64,000 bases of DNA from Escherichia phage vB_EcoM_Lh1B: sequence record OK428535.1. The stretch is one strand, 5' to 3'. Each line of letters begins with the position of its first letter. Position 1 is the stretch's first letter. The position numbers and the translations under genes are program-made. The notes under the pieces were generated by a model. That model was not told the origin of the DNA and did no database searches. It was given only the letters and a program-made list of their open reading frames with translations. Positions 3,301-58,652 of this stretch are shown in pieces.

Positions 3301-3370
3301 GGCTTTGTAGCTCAGGTAGGTAGAGCAACCTCTTCGAGGAAGGTCGCCGGTTCGAGTCCGGTCAAAGCAA
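3301..3370 (+). tRNA. tRNA-like element, non-canonical (possible pseudo-tRNA)
   Basis: Canonical D-arm GCTC-AGGTAGGTA-GAGC and T-arm GCCGG-TTCGAGT-CCGGT, 6-bp acceptor; the segment between them is too short for a standard anticodon arm plus variable loop. Confidence 0.4.
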
Positions 3371-7765: not shown

Positions 7766-7784
7766 CATAGATATTATCTTCGTG
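7766..7784 (+). promoter_or_regulatory. promoter-like motif CATAGATATTATCTTCGTG
   Basis: Motif family copy 26 nt upstream of the ATG at 7810. Confidence 0.45.
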
Positions 7785-11919: not shown

Positions 11920-14211
11920 ATGGACTACAATTCACCATTTCGTCTTAGTCAAGACGAGTATCATCGCGACATTGACGTTATCGATGCGTACTACGAACAA
12001 CTGGCGCTCTACATTCATACCGTCACCAACGGGAAATATTCTTTGGAGTTCTGTCGACAGCAGGTCGAAGAAATGTTCCAACCTGGTGGTGAGTTAGTAC
12101 ACGAATTCCCCGTGTGTAAGATGTGGGTGCGCAATCAAAAGACCGGCGATCGCGAAGAAAAATACACCACGGTAGATAAACTGTTCCGTACAGTGATTGA
12201 TAAGCAGATTATCTCTGCACCGTCGCTGACCTTTTATCTGCCTGAGCACGTCAAGCGCTCTAAGCTTGCTGAATTTACCGCAGAGAACGTGCGTAAGCGT
12301 GCGGTTGTTAAGAAAGAGATGTACGCAGCAGGTGCTGCGGGTAATGAAGTTCTGCGTATTAACAAAAAGAACGAACAGAACGCTGTTAAGACGTTGAACA
12401 ACGGGATGTCGGGTGCATTCTCATCACCGTACACGGTAATCTTTAACCAGTCTTCGCACTCTGTATTGACGTCAACCTGCCGTACGGCTACATCGTTCGG
12501 TAACGCGGGCAACGAACGTCTACTGGGCGGTAATCGTCACTACGACACGCCGTCCCGTGTTATCGACCACTTACTGTCTATTGGTACACTGACTAACTTT
12601 GCGGAGTTCAAGAAGTGTATGGAACTCTATAACCTCCACTACCCAACAGTGGACGAGGTTATGGAAGTGGTTATGTACTCTGCAGAGTTTTACTTCCGTA
12701 ACGACGAAGGGCTGGAGTTCATTCGTCACTACGTCGGTAATTGTAGCCCGCTGGTACGTGCAGCGTTTGTCTACATGGGTGACTTCTACCACCTGGCGAA
12801 ATACAACGATGAATTCATGCGCGGATTTATCGGTGCGCTGATTGCCGAGGAGATGGAAGACGAGATCACCGATTGGGATGCTGCTGAGCGCTCTATCGAC
12901 GGTGACATGCAGATCATTATCTCGCAGTTCCGTACTGATATCGTGCCGTTAGGTAAGTCGTTCTCTGACGTTAAACTCAAAGACGAAAACACGAACAAAG
13001 CGGAACCGTGGGATAAGCAGGAAAAATACAAAGAGCTGATTCGCTCAGCTGTGTATCTGCAGAAAACCATCGGTAAGTACGCGTGCTTGATTCGTAATAT
13101 CCTGACTACCAAAAACCTGCCGATTAACATTGCCAGGATGCCTGACGTGGTTCGTCGTGTCGGTGTGGTATCTGATACCGACTCCACGATGATGACTGCA
13201 CAGTGGTGGGCACAGTGGTATACCGGTCAACATTACGGTCGTGAAGCTACGCGCGTATCGGATGCGATGATTTATATTGCAACCCAGCACTTACGTCATC
13301 TGATGGCGAGCATGTCGGCGAACATTGGCGTGGCGAAAGAGCGTCTGTTTTTGTACGCAATGAAGAACGAATTTAAGTTCGACTCCTTTGCGTTAACCAC
13401 AAAAGCAAAACACTACTTCTCCATCATCACTGGCCAGGAAGGACAATTGAAGTCCGACCCTGAGTTAGAAGTTAAAGGTGTGTCTTTACGTACGTCGAAC
13501 ATACCGCCTGTGGTCATGAAAGAGTTCAAACGCACGATTAAAGAACTCTGTGAGATTGTAGCGCGCGGCGATAAGATTAAGATTCTGCCTCTGCTGGAAA
13601 AGGTTGCTGCAATTGAGCACGTTGTGGTGGACTCTATTCGTGCTGGTAAAGCAGGCTACCTGAAAACAACCAACGTCAAAGACCGTAGTGCGTACTCTGA
13701 AGATGATGAAAAGAGCTACCACTACCACCGCATGTACAACGCCATCTTTGGACCGAAGTACGGCTACCTGGACGAACCGCCTTATGACGCCGTGAAACTT
13801 CCGGTAAACCTGGAGAACAAAACAGCCGTTAAAGAGTGGCTGGAAAACATTAAAGACCCGATGATTAAGACCACTGCAACACGGTGGTTCGAAGAGAACA
13901 ACTATCGCACCTATCGTACTCTGATACTGCCAGAGTTCTTGGTGGAAAACTTCGGTATTCCTCCGGAGCTGATTGATGCTGCAGACACACGTCGAAGCGC
14001 ATTCTCCACAGTAGAACCTTACTATCACATCCTGGAATGTCTGGGTGTGTTCATGATGGACAAGAATAGAACTCGTCTGCTTTCGGATTACTACGGCGAG
14101 TCCGTAGACTCCGTCAAGGAAGAATTAGGTAGCGGCGAGTACGTTAAGAAATCTGAACGTGATGGAGAGGAAGAAGATGGGGAAGAAGATGGGGAAGAAG
14201 CGGAGGAGTAA
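11920..14211 (+). CDS. large protein; candidate polymerase-domain half of a split family-B DNA polymerase (tentative)
   Basis: 763-aa ORF; SDTDS (nt 13171..13185, motif C-like), motif B-like helix ~45 aa upstream (KELIRSAVYLQKTIG), KAKHY (KKRY-like) ~75 aa downstream; acidic C-terminal tail. Confidence 0.55.
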   Translation: MDYNSPFRLSQDEYHRDIDVIDAYYEQLALYIHTVTNGKYSLEFCRQQVEEMFQPGGELVHEFPVCKMWVRNQKTGDREEKYTTVDKLFRTVIDKQIISAPSLTFYLPEHVKRSKLAEFTAENVRKRAVVKKEMYAAGAAGNEVLRINKKNEQNAVKTLNNGMSGAFSSPYTVIFNQSSHSVLTSTCRTATSFGNAGNERLLGGNRHYDTPSRVIDHLLSIGTLTNFAEFKKCMELYNLHYPTVDEVMEVVMYSAEFYFRNDEGLEFIRHYVGNCSPLVRAAFVYMGDFYHLAKYNDEFMRGFIGALIAEEMEDEITDWDAAERSIDGDMQIIISQFRTDIVPLGKSFSDVKLKDENTNKAEPWDKQEKYKELIRSAVYLQKTIGKYACLIRNILTTKNLPINIARMPDVVRRVGVVSDTDSTMMTAQWWAQWYTGQHYGREATRVSDAMIYIATQHLRHLMASMSANIGVAKERLFLYAMKNEFKFDSFALTTKAKHYFSIITGQEGQLKSDPELEVKGVSLRTSNIPPVVMKEFKRTIKELCEIVARGDKIKILPLLEKVAAIEHVVVDSIRAGKAGYLKTTNVKDRSAYSEDDEKSYHYHRMYNAIFGPKYGYLDEPPYDAVKLPVNLENKTAVKEWLENIKDPMIKTTATRWFEENNYRTYRTLILPEFLVENFGIPPELIDAADTRRSAFSTVEPYYHILECLGVFMMDKNRTRLLSDYYGESVDSVKEELGSGEYVKKSERDGEEEDGEEDGEEAEE

Positions 14212-15531: not shown

Positions 15532-16599
15532 TTATTTTTCTTCTAGCTCTGTCGTCAACGGGATAATCAAATCCCGTTGGATAAAGTTATAGAAGGATTT
15601 AGTCAGACGTGTGAGGACTTTAGAGTCCACATAACGCGCCAAATCAACCAACATCGTACGTTTATGCTTTTCCATATTCCCCTGGTTGTATTGAAGACAA
15701 AACAGTGCCCAGTACCAGTTCACCATGTTCTGGTGCCAGGTGTTCTGCAGTGTTTGACCTGGTTCTCGAAAGACAATCAGTTCCAGTGCTGTGTGGCCTT
15801 CTTCATCAGGGTGTTGGAAGAACAATGGGATGTTGTTTAAGACTTGTCCCGGTAACGGGTTGGCAGCCAGTAGTTTACTACGGATGCCTTTTGCGTGCTT
15901 CACAGCTAAAGCTTGAAGCGGCGGAACAGGAATGACACGTAATGTTTCATCCGGTTCAATCTCTTTCCCGAAGGCTATCGCACGATGTATATTTACAAAG
16001 GCGATATCCATGTAGCTCGGCAACATGCGAGAGATCACATGTCGTTGGAGATACACAGGTGTGGCAATAGGTTCGGTACCGCGACTGTAGTGCTGCTGAC
16101 CTTTGACATATTGCCAAAGCAAAGCAACCAGGTTGATTTCGATCACCGTAACACCTCGGGGCCGTCCGTCACCGAACTTCCAATTGAGGTTGGTATACTC
16201 ATGGTAGAGGTAACGTGCGGGGGTGTAGTCGCGGAACGAAAGGTCTGGATTTACTGGGCGGGCTACGAGAGAGATTACCTCATCTTGGCCCTGGATAAAC
16301 TTGCTATTAAAGATTTGACCGTACTCACCAACAGACGTCAAGCGTAAGGCGTTACCGATCTGAACAAGTTTGCGACGGCAAGCCCATTCGATGTCTTCGT
16401 ACTCTGGTTCACCGGCATAGCCGATGGCAGACAACACCTCTTGCAACAAATGGCCATTACCAGCACTGCGATTAAGCTGTTCGTAGTAGTTGCGTATACG
16501 CTGGCTGTTGTTTTTTACGTGAGCCGCTAATGTTATAGCGGAGGGGTCCGTGCTGTGACCCTTTATGGCCACTTGGTTTAACTCGGCTTGGCTGAACAT
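15532..16599 (-). CDS. hypothetical protein
   Basis: Minus-strand ORF; start at ATG (MFSQAEL...) with AAGGAG 7 nt upstream. Confidence 0.5.
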   Translation of the reverse strand: MFSQAELNQVAIKGHSTDPSAITLAAHVKNNSQRIRNYYEQLNRSAGNGHLLQEVLSAIGYAGEPEYEDIEWACRRKLVQIGNALRLTSVGEYGQIFNSKFIQGQDEVISLVARPVNPDLSFRDYTPARYLYHEYTNLNWKFGDGRPRGVTVIEINLVALLWQYVKGQQHYSRGTEPIATPVYLQRHVISRMLPSYMDIAFVNIHRAIAFGKEIEPDETLRVIPVPPLQALAVKHAKGIRSKLLAANPLPGQVLNNIPLFFQHPDEEGHTALELIVFREPGQTLQNTWHQNMVNWYWALFCLQYNQGNMEKHKRTMLVDLARYVDSKVLTRLTKSFYNFIQRDLIIPLTTELEEK

Positions 16600-16651
16600 G
16601 GCAGACTCCTTAGATTCCACATAGGAAGTCAGTCACAGTCAAAAATATCTC

Positions 16652-16673
16652 AGATTGATATTATCTATGTGAC
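16652..16673 (+). promoter_or_regulatory. promoter-like motif AGATTGATATTATCTATGTGAC
   Basis: Motif family copy ~140 nt upstream of the ATG at 16806 (distal of two). Confidence 0.45.
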
Positions 16674-16747
16674 AGTTCCTGAGAAATGTCTGGACTATGT
16701 GCCTTGTAAGTAAGCGACGGCGTACTTGCATTCCATGAAATTACAGG

Positions 16748-16764
16748 CAGATATTATCTCTGCG
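16748..16764 (+). promoter_or_regulatory. promoter-like motif CAGATATTATCTCTGCG
   Basis: Motif family copy 44 nt upstream of the ATG at 16806 (proximal of two). Confidence 0.45.
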
Positions 16765-16805
16765 AACCGAACTATGATTGCAATCACTATTAAGGAATAT
16801 TTAAA

Positions 16806-18659
16806 ATGGTAAAAATCGTTGACTCTAACAACAACGCTCAGCAGAACAACACTCAGACTCAAGACACCGCACCACTGGGCGGTCTGGGCAACGAGACTGT
16901 AAAAGTGCAAACTGCTGTGCCGGGTACTTCTACTGTCAGCCAATTCGATAACGCATTTGGCATCCGCAACATCAGCACCTATGCAATGCACTTCGTCAAC
17001 CTCCTGGACGAGCTGAAGAAAAGCAACGAATACCTCAACGCTTTCCGCTGGGGCACCATCGCCGGCGTGGGTAACGAAATGGGTTCCGCGGCGTATGTCG
17101 CAGGCCAATGGCAGGGCCACTGGCTGTATGGTATCATCTTCTTTGAACGCGGTCAGTCTCTGCGTCTGAAAGAAACTACCAACAACGGCCAGGAAGACTA
17201 CTACACCATCACTGAACTGTTCAACAAAGACGTGCTGGCAGTAGTACAGAAAAACATCATGGAAGCGCATGGTCTGACCAATGCGAACTTCATGATCATC
17301 AACTCCGTACCAGACCTGGGTAAAGTTCTGGATGCTGAGTGGGCACGTACTCTGATGGGTCAGATGATGATGGGCATCTTCGGTCGTATCGCAGGCTACC
17401 TGGGTACGCTGAACCTGCGTAAGCATGACCGTTATCAGGCTGCAGTAATGCCGCTGGAAGATGGTGCGGTTGTGGATGCTAACGGCCACGCACAACGTGC
17501 TGATTTCGCAATCACCGTTGAGCACAGCCCAAGCAACGTATCCGACGCCACTCCGACTCTGCTGGACACCAATCAGGTACAGGTGTATCCGCGTGTATCC
17601 GGTACTGGTTTCGTCAACATGCGTTTCACCGGTCAGAAGCCTGTCGTTAACGGCGTCTACGACCTGAAACAGCTGCAGGCTGAAATCGTAGTAAGTCTGG
17701 TCGATTCTCAAACTGAAGGTGCAATGGCACCGTATGAACGTCAACTGCTGCTGCTGGCTGCATTTGCAGAAATCGCGGCAATCGGTGGCTGGCGTGACCT
17801 GTTTGTGAAACGTCTGAACAAACAAGATCGCAAGTTCTCCCGTGTGGCAGAATACCTGTCCTGGGGTGCTGACGCTCGTCCTGATGTATCCAAAATCGAC
17901 GGTAGCCGTGAAGCTATCGAAGGTTGCCTGGATATGTTCGCACCGCGTGAAGCAGCACTGGTAGTTAGCCATCGTGCCGGTAACGGTCTGGGTGGTCTGT
18001 CTACTATGCTGTCTGAAATTGCGGTCGGTTACGACAACTCTCTGAAACAGCTGCTCGCTATTCTGAATTCCATGTCCCCGCGTGATCAGAACGGCGAAGT
18101 TGTTGCAGCGACCAGCTTCACTGCAGTATTTGCTTCTGCACTGAAAGCACAGCTGGGCGATGCCTTCAATGGTACCATCCATTGCAGCCACATCGTGAAA
18201 GCAGCCGTACCGACTGTTTCCGGTGTTTACACCGGTACTGCACAGAAACGTAGCTTCCAGGATATGGACCTGATTTCCGTTGTTACCAAACTGGGTGATA
18301 ACGCGAACGACGTCTATAGCTACCTGAACGCACAGTCCTACAGCCACCGTGAACTGAACGAGCGTCAACAGCGTATCTACATGCTGAAACTGGCCGCTTC
18401 TCTGTTCGCATCCAAAGCACCGCAAGCTACCGGTGAATCTCTGGATATGGCTATCAACCCGATCTTCGGTAAATGCCTGCTGGACTTCGTCCGTAACAAC
18501 TGCACCTGGTCTATGACTGGTGTAAATGCCTACAACACGATGGCGACCTCTCTGTTCTTCAACAACGGTGGGGAAGACTTCACGCTGTCTGGCAACGGCC
18601 TGTCTGCAAGCGGTTCCGATTTCGGTCTGGGCGTGTCTCTGAGCAACTTCAAACTGTAA
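16806..18659 (+). CDS. abundant early protein; candidate phage-nucleus shell (chimallin-like) or major structural protein
   Basis: 617-aa ORF with strongly E. coli-optimal codons (CTG, CGT, GGT, AAC, ATC, TTC), unlike neighbours; TAAGGAA site; two upstream promoter-like motifs; next to RNAP beta-prime-like gene. Confidence 0.7.
   Translation: MVKIVDSNNNAQQNNTQTQDTAPLGGLGNETVKVQTAVPGTSTVSQFDNAFGIRNISTYAMHFVNLLDELKKSNEYLNAFRWGTIAGVGNEMGSAAYVAGQWQGHWLYGIIFFERGQSLRLKETTNNGQEDYYTITELFNKDVLAVVQKNIMEAHGLTNANFMIINSVPDLGKVLDAEWARTLMGQMMMGIFGRIAGYLGTLNLRKHDRYQAAVMPLEDGAVVDANGHAQRADFAITVEHSPSNVSDATPTLLDTNQVQVYPRVSGTGFVNMRFTGQKPVVNGVYDLKQLQAEIVVSLVDSQTEGAMAPYERQLLLLAAFAEIAAIGGWRDLFVKRLNKQDRKFSRVAEYLSWGADARPDVSKIDGSREAIEGCLDMFAPREAALVVSHRAGNGLGGLSTMLSEIAVGYDNSLKQLLAILNSMSPRDQNGEVVAATSFTAVFASALKAQLGDAFNGTIHCSHIVKAAVPTVSGVYTGTAQKRSFQDMDLISVVTKLGDNANDVYSYLNAQSYSHRELNERQQRIYMLKLAASLFASKAPQATGESLDMAINPIFGKCLLDFVRNNCTWSMTGVNAYNTMATSLFFNNGGEDFTLSGNGLSASGSDFGLGVSLSNFKL
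17676..17733 (+). repeat. copy A of ~58-bp direct repeat (inside CDS 16806..18659)
   Basis: caggctgaaatcgtagtaagtctggtcgattctcaaactgaaggtgcaatggcaccg; about 90 percent identical to 18677..18732. Confidence 0.8.
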
Positions 18660-18676
18660 TCGAATCGGTTACTGAG

Positions 18677-18732
18677 CAGGCTGAAATCGTAGTAAGTCTA
18701 TCGATTCCAAACTTGAAGGTGCAATGGCACCG
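18677..18732 (+). repeat. copy B of ~58-bp direct repeat (intergenic, includes ATG of next gene)
   Basis: caggctgaaatcgtagtaagtctatcgattccaaacttgaaggtgcaatggcaccg; ends in the first three codons of ORF 18724. Confidence 0.8.
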
Positions 18733-20250
18733 ATTGACAGAATGAGAAAGGTACCAAAATTCTACGGAATATCCGGCCGGTTGGTTAGTCAGGATAACTA
18801 TTTGTCCGATTTGCAAATAGAAGCTGCTGCCAAAGGTATTAAACCACCCACTATTATTAACGATGTCGCCGTTAACGGGGATGCGATCGAGGTTGCTGAA
18901 CTTATCGATCGCATGGTACAGAACAGAATCGTTGACGAAGAACTGAACTCTGCACCGATTTGTAGTTTGGATTGTCCGGCACCGATCGCGCATCGTTACA
19001 ATCTCGGTTGTAAGTGTCCGACGTGTGGCTATGTTGTAACTGAACATCGAATTGAATCCGATGTCTGGTTACGTGCACCTGATGAAATGGGTAACTTCGT
19101 CAACCCACGATTCTGGGCAATGTTCAATGCTTTCTTTAATAGCAAGTTGAAGAAGTTTGAACGTAACAAGGTCACTATCGAACGCGGTAATGACTTGATG
19201 ATGTGGATGATTGACCCGTATTACCGTATAGAAGAACCAGACGGTAAACGCGCACATGCTGTGAAACGTGTATTGGAAGAACATGGTTTCGTTCGTGGCT
19301 TGCGCAATCTGGTTGATAACCACGTTAGTATCTTTAACATCCTTACCACGCCAGAAGCCTGGAAGGAAATCTTCGCACCTAATCGGCATAACGCCGCTGA
19401 AGGTGAACGCTTACGTTTACAATGGAAGGAGCTATTCGAAACGCAACGTCACGCATTCTTTCCAAGACATTTACCGCTAATCTCCTCTAAACTTATCGTT
19501 ACTGAGGAAGGTCGTCGTGGTGTCATGGTAGACCCAGTGTTCACGGGTGCTATTGACGCGGTGAAAAATATCGCGTTGCTCTATACGCGGCGTAAAGCGA
19601 TCGAACCACGTTTTCTGATTAGTCGTGCTTTGAAGGCGAACCGTCAGCTAACGTACTTCCACATGGACTTCCGTCGTGAGTCTATGGAAGGTAAACCGGG
19701 TGACTATCGTGCGAAATTGGGTTCTACCCATATCCCGTTCGGTGGTCGTGCAACCATCTCACCTATCTCAGAACCACACGATGCCTGGAAGTTAAAAGCA
19801 CCGTGGCGTTGGATGGTTGGGTTGATGTCGACCCACATCGAGAACAAACTGCTACGACGGGGTTATTCGTCGCGGCAATGTGAGCGTATCGTTGCAAAAG
19901 CGGCAATGCAGTATGACCCGCTTGTAGACGAAATCTTTAAAGAACTGATTCGTGAATCCCCAGGCGGTCTTGGGATCATGGTCATACCGTTACGTAACCC
20001 AACGCTGGTACAGTTGTCTATTCAAACGCTGTACATCGATGAAGTTGTTACCGATGTTAACCAGTGTTCGCTGCGTATCTCTGACCGTGTGATCAAGATG
20101 GCTAACGGTTCGAAAAGAGCCCCATCGGACGGGAAACCTCTGATGCGTATTCTCCTGAAATGCTGGGAAACCCTAAAGCGTATCTACCAGAAATGGGGAC
20201 GAAAGTCTGAAACAACAGATACGATGGCCTACGCTAAACAATACTGCTAA
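18724..20250 (+). CDS. multisubunit RNA polymerase beta-prime-like subunit, N-terminal fragment
   Basis: Zinc-ribbon CSLDC...CKCPTCGYVVT (cf. beta-prime CxC...CxxCGVEVT); ELIRESP and RNPTLVQLSIQT match beta-prime EVIREHP / RAPTLHRLGIQA. Confidence 0.65.
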   Translation: MAPIDRMRKVPKFYGISGRLVSQDNYLSDLQIEAAAKGIKPPTIINDVAVNGDAIEVAELIDRMVQNRIVDEELNSAPICSLDCPAPIAHRYNLGCKCPTCGYVVTEHRIESDVWLRAPDEMGNFVNPRFWAMFNAFFNSKLKKFERNKVTIERGNDLMMWMIDPYYRIEEPDGKRAHAVKRVLEEHGFVRGLRNLVDNHVSIFNILTTPEAWKEIFAPNRHNAAEGERLRLQWKELFETQRHAFFPRHLPLISSKLIVTEEGRRGVMVDPVFTGAIDAVKNIALLYTRRKAIEPRFLISRALKANRQLTYFHMDFRRESMEGKPGDYRAKLGSTHIPFGGRATISPISEPHDAWKLKAPWRWMVGLMSTHIENKLLRRGYSSRQCERIVAKAAMQYDPLVDEIFKELIRESPGGLGIMVIPLRNPTLVQLSIQTLYIDEVVTDVNQCSLRISDRVIKMANGSKRAPSDGKPLMRILLKCWETLKRIYQKWGRKSETTDTMAYAKQYC

Positions 20251-20453
20251 CGGTTGTGATAATGGGTAATCAGCAGCGAAGCCTCGTGAGAGGAACGTTC
20301 AACGACTATCGCTGAAATGCGAGTAGGGGTCCCAGTGGACTTCGAAGTGGGAGAACACCTAAGGCGATAGCTATGGTGAAGATATAGTCTGTGCCTTATC
20401 GAGAGATAAGGAGGGTGTCTTAGCACACCTGCTGTATACGGAAACGGTATACG

Positions 20454-20693
20454 ATGGACAAACAGGATTTCGATGGTGACCAGTTCCAGGTACGTTTGCC
20501 AGTCGATGAAACTGAGATGAAGTTGGCGCTCCAATTCCGTCCAGATAACGGCTTTATGTCTTCTACTGATGTGGACCGCGTAGAACACGGCATGGTTTTA
20601 CATAACGAGCTAATCAGTATGCAGAACCAGTTCCTTATTGAAGCAGATGAGGATGATGAAGAAGGCATTCCGTTGGAAGCGGTGATGGGCTAA
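20454..20693 (+). CDS. hypothetical small acidic protein
   Basis: 79-aa ORF, weak ribosome-binding site. Confidence 0.3.
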   Translation: MDKQDFDGDQFQVRLPVDETEMKLALQFRPDNGFMSSTDVDRVEHGMVLHNELISMQNQFLIEADEDDEEGIPLEAVMG

Positions 20694-20706
20694 TAGGAGT
20701 ATTGTA

Positions 20707-56037: not shown

Positions 56038-57315
56038 ATGGCAAACTTTGTAAAAAGTAAACTCGCCCGCGAGTCCGTTGAAGCTACCGGCGACGTAATC
56101 GACGGTCTGAGCAACGTTGAACCGGCAGAAGAGAACATCGACGTTCAGCTGGCAGAAGTTGCGTCTATCGACGGTCAGCTGGAACAGCTCGATGGTGACC
56201 AGGAAACCCTGGCTGCTGATACCGAGTGTACCGAAGCTGCTATCGACGCTGCTGACGAAAAAATCGAAAACGGTGAAGAGATGCCTGAAGAAGCCATCGC
56301 TCACACCGAAGTGGCGCAGGAATCTATCCGTAAACGTTGGGCTATCGATCGTACCAAACTGGCACGCGAATCTTATCGCCGTGGCCGTGGCATGACCAAA
56401 GCAGCTCAGGAAGGCTGGAAAGAAACCCTGAAAGATCTGTTCAAGCGCTTCGTTGAACTGTGTAAAGCAGTTATCGCGAAAGCGAAAGAGCTGAAACTGA
56501 AATACATCAACGTTGGTAAGTCTGCACAGAAACGTGCGAAAGCTTACCAAGAGATGCTGCGTAAGCTCGGTAAGCAGAAGAAAGAAAACATCTCTGGCGG
56601 CTTTATTAGCAAACTGTCTATCGAAGGCGACTTCGATGTGGCCAACTCCATCGCTATCGCGAAAGAGCTGACCGGCGGTAAAGCGAAAGACGCTATCAAC
56701 AAGCTGTCCTCTCAGGCGTCCGAATCTGCTGTAGCGATCACCAAAACCGCAGAAGGTACTGCAACGGCTGCTAAAGGCGCTGTTGATGTTGCCCTGTTCG
56801 GTACCGCTGCTAAGAAACTGCGCACCCTGCCGCAGTTCGAAGATGGCGAAGGCGGTCAGAAAGTTCTGGCACTGCCAGGCAACGCCTATGTGCAGATCGG
56901 TAGCAAAACTCTGGCCGGCGGCCAGGACTTCACTGCGGTGGCGTTCCTGTCAACTGGCGACTCTACCGACACGAAAGAGATTGCTACCCCGGCAATTACC
57001 GCACTGGCGTCTGCAGCAACCGCTCTTGATGCGATCGGTAAAGGCTTCGAGAAAGTGCTGCAGGACTTCCGCTCCTATGACGCCGATGTTGAGAAACTGG
57101 AGCAGGCTGCTAGCAAAGCTGCTGCTGCCCTGGATAAATCCAACGACGAAGGCGAGTGGGAAGCACTGCGTAATGCACGTACTGCAGCCGACCAGGCTGT
57201 GCGTAACTACCAGACTCTGAACCGTGCCGTGGCGCATGTTGGTAACACTGTTATCAGCGGCCTGAACGGTTACATCGGTGCTGGTATCGGCGCGTACGAA
57301 AAGTCTAAAGCTTAA
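56038..57315 (+). CDS. acidic alpha-helical protein, paralog A (probably abundant)
   Basis: 425 aa; starts MANFVKSKLARESVE, contains AQESIRKRWA and LGKQKKE..SGGFI, ends GAGIGAYEKSKA; optimal codons. Confidence 0.65.
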   Translation: MANFVKSKLARESVEATGDVIDGLSNVEPAEENIDVQLAEVASIDGQLEQLDGDQETLAADTECTEAAIDAADEKIENGEEMPEEAIAHTEVAQESIRKRWAIDRTKLARESYRRGRGMTKAAQEGWKETLKDLFKRFVELCKAVIAKAKELKLKYINVGKSAQKRAKAYQEMLRKLGKQKKENISGGFISKLSIEGDFDVANSIAIAKELTGGKAKDAINKLSSQASESAVAITKTAEGTATAAKGAVDVALFGTAAKKLRTLPQFEDGEGGQKVLALPGNAYVQIGSKTLAGGQDFTAVAFLSTGDSTDTKEIATPAITALASAATALDAIGKGFEKVLQDFRSYDADVEKLEQAASKAAAALDKSNDEGEWEALRNARTAADQAVRNYQTLNRAVAHVGNTVISGLNGYIGAGIGAYEKSKA

Positions 57316-57392: not shown

Positions 57393-58652
57393 ATGGCTAA
57401 CTTTGTAAAAAGTAAACTCGCGCGTGAATCTGTCGAAGGCACAGGTACTGTCGTTCCGGACGGTATCGAGCTGCCGGCTGAGTCCGTAGAAGGTACTCTG
57501 GCTGACATCGAGCACGACACTAAACCGATCGACCAGCTGGATGCTGAAGCAGATGTGCTGGCAGAAGACGGCGACGAAACCGACGCGCAGCTGGATGCAG
57601 TTGATGCTGCTGAAGCTGCTGCTGACGGTGAAGGTGAAGATGGCGAAGAGCCAATGGAAGTGGAAGAAGATATGCCTGACGAAGCTGCTGAGCAGCTGGA
57701 CGTTGCGCAGGAATCTATCCGTAAACGTTGGGCATTCGACCACCGCGTAAGCGTTGCGCAGGAATCTTACGGTGCACGTAAGCGCCGCCAGGTTGCTCGT
57801 GAAAGCCTGTGGGACGACATCAAAGCGTTCCTGCAGCGCATCTACGACTGGCTGAAAGAACAAGGCCGTAAGGTTAAAGACCGTTGGCTGAAGTTCAGCA
57901 ACCAGGGTAAATCCATTCAGGCGCGTGCTAAGAAATATGACGCTGCTCTGCGTGGCCTGGGCAAGCAGAAGAAAGACACCGTTAGCGGTGGGTTCATTAA
58001 GAACCTGACCACCGGTGGTAAGTTCGTCGGTGACGACATCAACGTCCTGAAAGAGCTTCTGTCTTCTATCGGCAGCATCTACGGTGAGCAGGATGCAGTT
58101 GTTGCAGCCGCTACCACTATGGTTGGCGCAGTTGAGGCTGGCAAACGGGTTGGCGGTTTCGCAGCAGCGGTTAACAAAGCAACTGCAGGTAAAGCGGGCG
58201 AAGTTCAGCTGCTGGGCAACCAGATCGGTAAAGCCGAAGTGAAAGTGAACGGGGATGACCTGGAAGCTTCCTTCAATGTTATCGACGCCGAAGGTAGCGT
58301 AGAGCAGTCTGTTTCTACTCCGTCTCTCACGACTCTGTCTTCCCTGGTTGCGTTCTTCAACCAGCTGGGTAAAGCAGTCGAAGAGAACGTGAAAGCATAC
58401 CACAAAAATAACCAGGCTCAAGAGCGTTACGAGCAGGCTATTGAGAAACTGCTGAAACGTATCGACGGCGTGAAGATCGACGACAACGCAGAACTGACTT
58501 CCAACGTCCGTGTTGCACGTCGTGCAATCACCGTTGCGAACCAGTACATCTCCTGGACCGAACGTTGCGTTGCANCCGGCCANAAAAACCTGATCGCCGG
58601 CGTTAACGGCTACATCNGCGAGGGTATCGGTGCGTACGAAAAGTATAAGTAA
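57393..58652 (+). CDS. acidic alpha-helical protein, paralog B (probably abundant)
   Basis: 419 aa; same N-terminus, internal blocks and C-terminal GIGAYEKYK as paralog A. Confidence 0.65.
   Translation: MANFVKSKLARESVEGTGTVVPDGIELPAESVEGTLADIEHDTKPIDQLDAEADVLAEDGDETDAQLDAVDAAEAAADGEGEDGEEPMEVEEDMPDEAAEQLDVAQESIRKRWAFDHRVSVAQESYGARKRRQVARESLWDDIKAFLQRIYDWLKEQGRKVKDRWLKFSNQGKSIQARAKKYDAALRGLGKQKKDTVSGGFIKNLTTGGKFVGDDINVLKELLSSIGSIYGEQDAVVAAATTMVGAVEAGKRVGGFAAAVNKATAGKAGEVQLLGNQIGKAEVKVNGDDLEASFNVIDAEGSVEQSVSTPSLTTLSSLVAFFNQLGKAVEENVKAYHKNNQAQERYEQAIEKLLKRIDGVKIDDNAELTSNVRVARRAITVANQYISWTERCVAXGXKNLIAGVNGYIXEGIGAYEKYK

Follow-up and report, generated by a model that had tools for sequence, protein, structure and literature searches.

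The gene at positions 16806-18659 of a 64,000-nucleotide stretch of Escherichia phage vB_EcoM_Lh1B (record OK428535.1; the whole stretch is called the window here) almost certainly encodes chimallin (ChmA), the protein of which the phage nucleus is mainly made, in a jumbo phage of the SPN3US type. Thanks to chimallin, jumbo phages can form a compartment resembling a nucleus and evade defences directed at DNA, for example restriction enzymes and CRISPR-Cas. Recognising a chimallin gene marks a phage as nucleus-forming, which bears on the choice of phages for therapy, and it guides the reading of the rest of the genome, as it tells which proteins act inside and which outside the compartment. A first reading of the letters without database searches (the sequence-only reading) had proposed a chimallin-like shell protein at this locus, and a fold match, a profile-profile comparison, the gene order and the literature all support that proposal. 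The assignment is already known, as the SPN3US orthologue stands in a homologue list published in 2022. The gene is as follows:

16806..18659 (including the stop codon), + strand: chmA, almost certainly chimallin (phage nucleus shell protein); ATG start, 617 amino acids

The open reading frame (ORF) is real, with the coordinates and length that the sequence-only reading gave it; the start lies at the equivalent position in 27 of 27 aligned family members, and 24 of them begin with MVK. To which phages does it belong? A phage collection was searched with the gene at the DNA and protein levels, and these searches assign the window to the SPN3US group, jumbo phages of about 240 kb in the genus Seoulvirus. 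The DNA is 99.9% identical to that of Salmonella phage SPLA5c and 99.0% identical to that of SPN3US, while the protein is identical (100%) in several SPFM and SPLA Salmonella phages and 99.5% identical in SPN3US. The SPN3US orthologue, YP_009153316.1, carries the GenBank tag SPN3US_0022 ('gp22') and the RefSeq tag ACQ60_gp244; gene, length and neighbours are the same in both phages, and SPN3US differs from the window in the 64-nt spacer downstream and in a β′ RNA polymerase gene without an intron. None of the 63 matching phage records gives a function for chmA, nearly all reading 'hypothetical protein' and the others an unrelated label.

The predicted fold argues for chimallin. An AlphaFold2 model of ChmA, built on the 27-member family alignment, has a mean predicted local distance difference test score (pLDDT) of 73.9 and a predicted template modelling score (pTM) of 0.77; the core, about residues 57-578, is well predicted. 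The sequence-only reading had named a fold comparison against chimallin and capsid structures as the way to check its proposal; this comparison was run with Foldseek against the PDB, and the top nine matches are all chimallins (E values 2.3e-21 to 7.3e-17, template modelling (TM) scores 0.56-0.68). They include structures of Goslar (7SQV, 7SQT, 7SQU), 201phi2-1 (7SQQ, 7SQR, 7SQS, 8IGG) and phiPA3 PhuN (8FNE), and the alignments span 557-610 columns, nearly the full length of ChmA. The tenth match has an E value of 0.05 and a probability of 0.10, and no HK97-fold capsid, tail-sheath or other virion structure is found among the 50 PDB matches listed. The model shows the two-domain α/β core of the chimallin protomer. 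This predicted fold is shared with the canonical chimallins Goslar gp189, 201phi2-1 gp105, phiPA3 gp53 and phiKZ gp54, which also have flexible N- and C-terminal segments, as predicted for ChmA, and share with it a neighbouring gene for a β′ subunit of the non-virion RNA polymerase (nvRNAP); they are 626-631 amino acids long against 617 in the window. Among viral models (BFVD), the named matches at E <= 1e-16 are all proteins of about 590-690 amino acids from jumbo phages (Noxifer, RP12, RSF1, Eowyn, D3 and pTD1).

Is the relationship also visible in the sequences? Aligned with hhalign, the profile of the 27-member clade and a six-member profile of canonical chimallins are homologous with a probability of 93.4% and an E value of 2.5e-7 over 414 colinear columns, pairing NGHxQRADF with VGNPVRSDI and KRSxQDMD with xHDIRDLD. 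The canonical profile was made by adding three sequences to Goslar, 201phi2-1 and phiKZ, upon which the probability rose to 93%. Among the sequence methods, it took the comparison of two profiles to reveal the link.

Gene order leads to the same conclusion. Upstream of chmA lie two genes that anchor the comparison with other nucleus-forming phages:

11920..14211, + strand: divergent family B DNA polymerase (Pfam PF20286), the upstream syntenic anchor, as in Goslar
15532..16620, − strand: divergently transcribed gene of 362 amino acids (PHROG 3938), with a counterpart in the same place in Goslar, Asesino and SPN3US

The order in the window is that of Goslar, i.e. DNA polymerase, a minus-strand gene of about 360 codons, the shell gene and the nvRNAP β′ gene, and the Goslar gene at the position of chmA has the RefSeq product 'nuclear shell protein'. 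In phiKZ, PHIKZ054 ('nuclear shell protein') is followed directly by PHIKZ055 ('RNA polymerase beta subunit'), just as the sequence-only reading had stated; in Asesino gp39 (shell) is followed by gp40, and in 201phi2-1 one small gene separates the shell gene from the β′ gene. The gene 3′ of chmA encodes the N-terminal subunit of a β′-type RNA polymerase (PHROG 2987, E 5e-155, with the DFDGD motif), and its Asesino orthologue gp40 has been named nvRNAP β′1 (PMC11724907). In this genome of the Chimalliviridae, chmA lies beside the gene for the N-terminal nvRNAP β′ subunit. The sequence-only reading had rightly seen a β′-like N-terminal part next door; the 508-residue ORF that it took for a fragment is the first exon of a split gene running on into an intron, to which we return below.

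Published work on close relatives completes the picture. Laughlin et al. listed SPN3US gp244 in 2022 as a diverged chimallin homologue, under the accession YP_009153316.1 in their Supplementary Table 7 (PMC9365700). The numbering requires some care. The 'gp244' of Laughlin follows the RefSeq tag ACQ60_gp244, and in the genetics papers on SPN3US this protein goes by gp22; there gp244 denotes a different protein, the 240-residue C-terminal β′ subunit of the virion RNA polymerase (vRNAP). The value of the present assignment lies mainly in annotation, with all those records devoid of a function label, a local Pfam model that misses this branch and a clash of gp22 and gp244 that can mislead. Cellular evidence comes from the Erwinia phage Asesino (genus Erskinevirus), whose ChmA (gp39) is an experimentally shown nucleus shell protein: as a GFP fusion it surrounds the DAPI-bright phage DNA in a ring (PMC11724907). 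Asesino gp39 is 64% identical to ChmA over the full length and shares with the window the flanking genes, the tandem motifs upstream and the ribosome-binding site; besides host and genus, it differs in having another low-complexity N-terminal linker. Every member of the chimallivirus clade to which Asesino belongs is without the PhuZ tubulin (PMC11724907). In SPN3US, gp22 is described as abundant in infected cells (PMC7552025), and it was undetected in purified wild-type virions (PMC7411985). SPN3US lysates also contain large tetragonal (p4) protein sheets (PMC7552025), which Laughlin et al. attribute to chimallin (PMC9365700).

Several results weigh against this assignment. When the clade profile is compared by hhalign with single chimallins (Goslar, 201phi2-1 or phiKZ), the alignments are colinear and insignificant, with probabilities of 0.6-2%; phmmer with the single protein and a search with the 27-sequence profile both give 0 matches in all PDB sequences, and identity in the structural alignments of ChmA with chimallins is only 12-14%. 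The local version of the Phikzvirus chimallin family in Pfam (PF25677.1, 'Chimallin_Phikzvirus') does not match ChmA at E <= 0.1, nor, at E <= 10, four clade members that include ChmA. The repeat of the SPN3US sheets is 67 Å, read by Laughlin as 13.5 nm, against 11.5 nm in Goslar and 201phi2-1, so the geometry of the SPN3US lattice may differ. Formation of a lattice by the SPN3US protein is a proposal; finally, we infer early timing of chmA only from the motif found upstream of it (see below). As to Pfam, the model of PF25677 was evidently built on the phiKZ-like branch, and the miss of PF25677.1 reflects the limited reach of the model rather than an exclusion of the clade from the family; the later PF25677.3 is precomputed on 10 of the 27 clade members. 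Another Pfam candidate, FliC_D2, stays below the threshold (E 0.055) and was rejected. In PHROG, the protein falls into phrog_8316, a family without a function or structural annotation.

What would the parts outside the folded core do? Two segments flank it:

16806..16973, + strand: N-terminal segment (codons 1-56), a conserved MVKxV tip followed by a variable N/Q/S/T-rich linker; pLDDT 25-30
18540..18656, + strand: C-terminal tail (codons 579-617), with motifs SLFFNNGGExFxLSGNG and SDFGLGV..F.L; pLDDT 24-34

The sequence-only reading had pointed out an Asn/Gln-rich N-terminal extension, and it is there: residues 1-45 contain 11 N or Q and 10 S or T (21 of 45 together), and the segment is predicted to be disordered (pLDDT about 25). 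It is also the least conserved part of the family, with a majority fraction of 0.80 at the tip and 0.33 over residues 6-45. The C-terminal tail behaves differently, as it is conserved about as well as the folded core (majority fraction 0.65 vs 0.69) though modelled as disordered, and F584, G588 and G596 are invariant across the family. Such a combination of disorder and core-like conservation is as expected for a peptide that links a lattice. Tetramers of ChmA in this family tile a square lattice, in which the N-terminal segment (NTS) of chimallin binds within the tetramer and the C-terminal segments (CTS) bind neighbouring tetramers; deletion of the segments abolishes assembly (PMC12908238). 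By analogy, we propose that the N-terminal segment of ChmA would be the counterpart of the NTS, making contacts within the same tetramer, and that the C-terminal 39 residues would correspond to CTS1/CTS2 and link neighbouring tetramers.

Could the protein instead be part of the virion or of its assembly line? The sequence-only reading had kept a major virion protein, i.e. capsid or tail sheath, as the alternative. What speaks for it are generic features, a large phage gene with highly biased codons. Only chimallins match below an E value of 0.05, with neither an HK97 nor a sheath fold among the Foldseek PDB matches listed; in SPN3US these roles are moreover taken, the major capsid protein being gp75 and the sheath gp256 (PMC5105663), and gp22 is missing from the proteins detected in purified wild-type particles (PMC7411985). 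Fold search and published proteomics together effectively refute this alternative, to which we assign next to no probability.

The only serious competitor of chimallin is a scaffold or core protein of the prohead that fills the procapsid and is removed at maturation, as the SPN3US group proposed for gp22 before chimallin had been defined. The idea has experimental roots. In infections with protease mutants of SPN3US, gp22 stayed with the prohead preparations over two gradients (PMC7411985), its spectral counts in these preparations were about those of the major capsid protein, and mature virions lacked it (PMC7411985); high abundance and strong codon bias would suit a scaffold too. The predicted fold is, however, that of a chimallin and not that of a helical scaffold, and the 64%-identical Asesino protein rings the DNA instead of sitting at capsids. 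The co-purification has other explanations as well: tetragonal sheets present in the same protease-mutant lysates could co-sediment with proheads, and the shell is a docking place for capsids in phages of this family (PMC9365700). We judge the scaffold unlikely, indeed very improbable, and retain chimallin as the function of the gene.

A more speculative idea would bring the earlier scaffold observations into line with a chimallin function: in the SPN3US clade, the prohead protease might act on the shell protein too, at the sites where capsids dock. Both disordered tails of ChmA contain S/A/G-X-E motifs, G28-N-E30 in the N-terminal segment and G588-G-E590 where the core passes into the C-terminal tail; phiKZ chimallin is reportedly cut at the equivalent junction, and in protease mutants SPN3US gp22 accumulates together with proheads (PMC7411985). 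If such cleavage opened the lattice locally or freed filled capsids, it would link head maturation to remodelling of the shell. Most of the members of about 50% identity (mostly from Erwinia phages) have Q in place of the glutamate of NNGGE, so the motif is not family-wide and we consider the idea doubtful.

How would the cell make enough of this protein? The strength of its codon bias was one of the observations behind the sequence-only reading, and the numbers agree. The frequency of optimal codons (Fop) was computed with a list of E. coli optimal codons for the 56 ORFs of at least 100 amino acids in the window; chmA ranks first of 56 with 0.793 (z = 2.9) and has the lowest effective number of codons (ENC, 34.4), by a narrow lead, as the genes at 56038-57315 and 57393-58652 reach Fop values of 0.785 and 0.780. 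These two are tandem paralogues of PHROG 2497 whose SPN3US counterparts are named 'internal head protein' in RefSeq, so that the three most codon-biased genes of the window are chmA and a pair of internal head protein genes. Their region is 98.5% identical to SPFM4 and only 92% identical to SPLA5c and SPN3US. With chmA nearest to SPLA5c and this region nearest to SPFM4, the two loci point to mosaicism among Seoulvirus genomes. Opposite chmA, on the − strand, lies an ORF of 576 codons (16695-18425) with a TTG start and no PHROG match; it was rejected as a gene, being most likely a shadow that results from how strongly the codons of the sense frame are biased. Translation of chmA itself can start from a recognisable site:

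16792..16796, + strand: Shine-Dalgarno sequence AAGGA, with a 9-nt spacer to the ATG; kept in Asesino

The AAGGA at this distance bears out the ribosome-binding site of the sequence-only reading, whose wording 'near-consensus' was somewhat generous.

The same reading had noticed two tandem promoter-like motifs upstream of the gene. These are exact copies of GATATTATCT, spaced 93 nt apart, and they belong to a larger set:

16657..16666, + strand: distal motif GATATTATCT, extended cagattGATATTATCTatGTG; kept upstream of Asesino gp39
16750..16759, + strand: proximal motif GATATTATCT, 47 nt before the ATG; kept in Asesino
4806, 7770, 16657, 16750, 25207, 26623 and 30366, all + strand: copies of the extended motif aGATAGATATTATCTnnGTG

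Allowing at most one mismatch, GATATTATCT occurs 16 times in the window against 2.4 expected, a count reached in 0 of 100 shuffles. The six copies without a mismatch are all on the + strand, and four of these precede the start of a + strand ORF by no more than about 150 nt. The consensus of the extended motif is aGATAGATATTATCTnnGTG, and most of its copies stand 30-60 nt upstream of + strand start codons, those at 7770 and 26623 falling inside predicted ORFs. Both copies upstream of chmA recur at the same positions and spacing before the Asesino orthologue, despite a protein identity of 64%, and the related TTATATTACCTAGGTG is found upstream of Goslar chmA. The motifs are not σ70-like: a scan for σ70 promoters found 2 against 2.1 expected, which is the chance level, and a scan for intrinsic terminators around chmA likewise gave chance-level results. 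According to a review of jumbo-phage RNA polymerases, the early operons of each such phage are preceded by a conserved, AT-rich element of about 10 nt that serves as the promoter of the virion RNA polymerase (PMC7598289); by analogy, the vRNAP of this phage group probably uses aGATAGATATTATCTnnGTG as its early promoter.

A coherent model can be drawn from these elements. Early in infection chmA would be transcribed from the two tandem AT-rich phage promoter motifs, most likely by the injected virion RNA polymerase, and the message would be translated very efficiently, as suggested here by the top codon bias of the window and in the literature by the abundance of gp22 in SPN3US. The folded two-domain core (about residues 57-578) would form tetramers, and these, to judge from solved chimallin assemblies, would tile a square lattice held together by the N-terminal segment within tetramers and the conserved C-terminal tail between them. 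As established for the family, the closed shell would then enclose the replicating phage DNA together with the nvRNAP, encoded next door, and exclude host nucleases and ribosomes.

The β′ gene next to chmA deserves a description of its own, as it is interrupted:

18724..20109, + strand: exon 1 of the nvRNAP β′ N-terminal subunit (PHROG 2987), aligned with SPN3US gp23
20110..20465, + strand: group I intron of 356 nt without an ORF, inside the catalytic motif DFDGD (Rfam RF00028, 69.4 bits, E 1.9e-17)
20466..20696, + strand: exon 2 of the nvRNAP β′ N-terminal subunit, by alignment with SPN3US gp23

The 508-residue ORF at 18724-20250 consists of exon 1 and the first part of the intron, read as one frame. 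Predicted splicing would restore KMANG|DFDGDQ, with a T as the last base of the 5′ exon and a G as the last base of the intron. The group I intron is missing from the β′ gene of SPN3US. SPLA5c seems to carry the same insertion, as its protein match to this gene falls into two parts that together extend over about 1.95 kb rather than 1.6 kb. At the end of the same gene Goslar has a group I intron and an HNH endonuclease, and in phiKZ an HNH endonuclease gene lies directly 3′ of it. The spacer between chmA and the RNA polymerase gene (18660-18723) is unrelated to that of SPN3US, which contains a GC-rich hairpin followed by a run of T resembling a terminator; the spacer of the window is without such a terminator, and the RNA polymerase gene of the window gains an upstream ATG at 18724 compared with SPN3US.

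Elsewhere in the window, ARAGORN and Rfam agree on a tRNA-Trp (CCA) at 2141-2216, and Rfam alone reports a further tRNA-like element at 3301-3370, with 40.9 bits. The coordinates of the window coincide exactly with those of Escherichia phage vB_EcoM_EC001 (MN445185.1) at both the 16806 and the 56038 loci, at identities of 99.1% and 92.5%, respectively. Equal coordinates with unequal sequence indicate that the window and EC001 share a start point and have accumulated many substitutions and no net insertions or deletions over about 58 kb.

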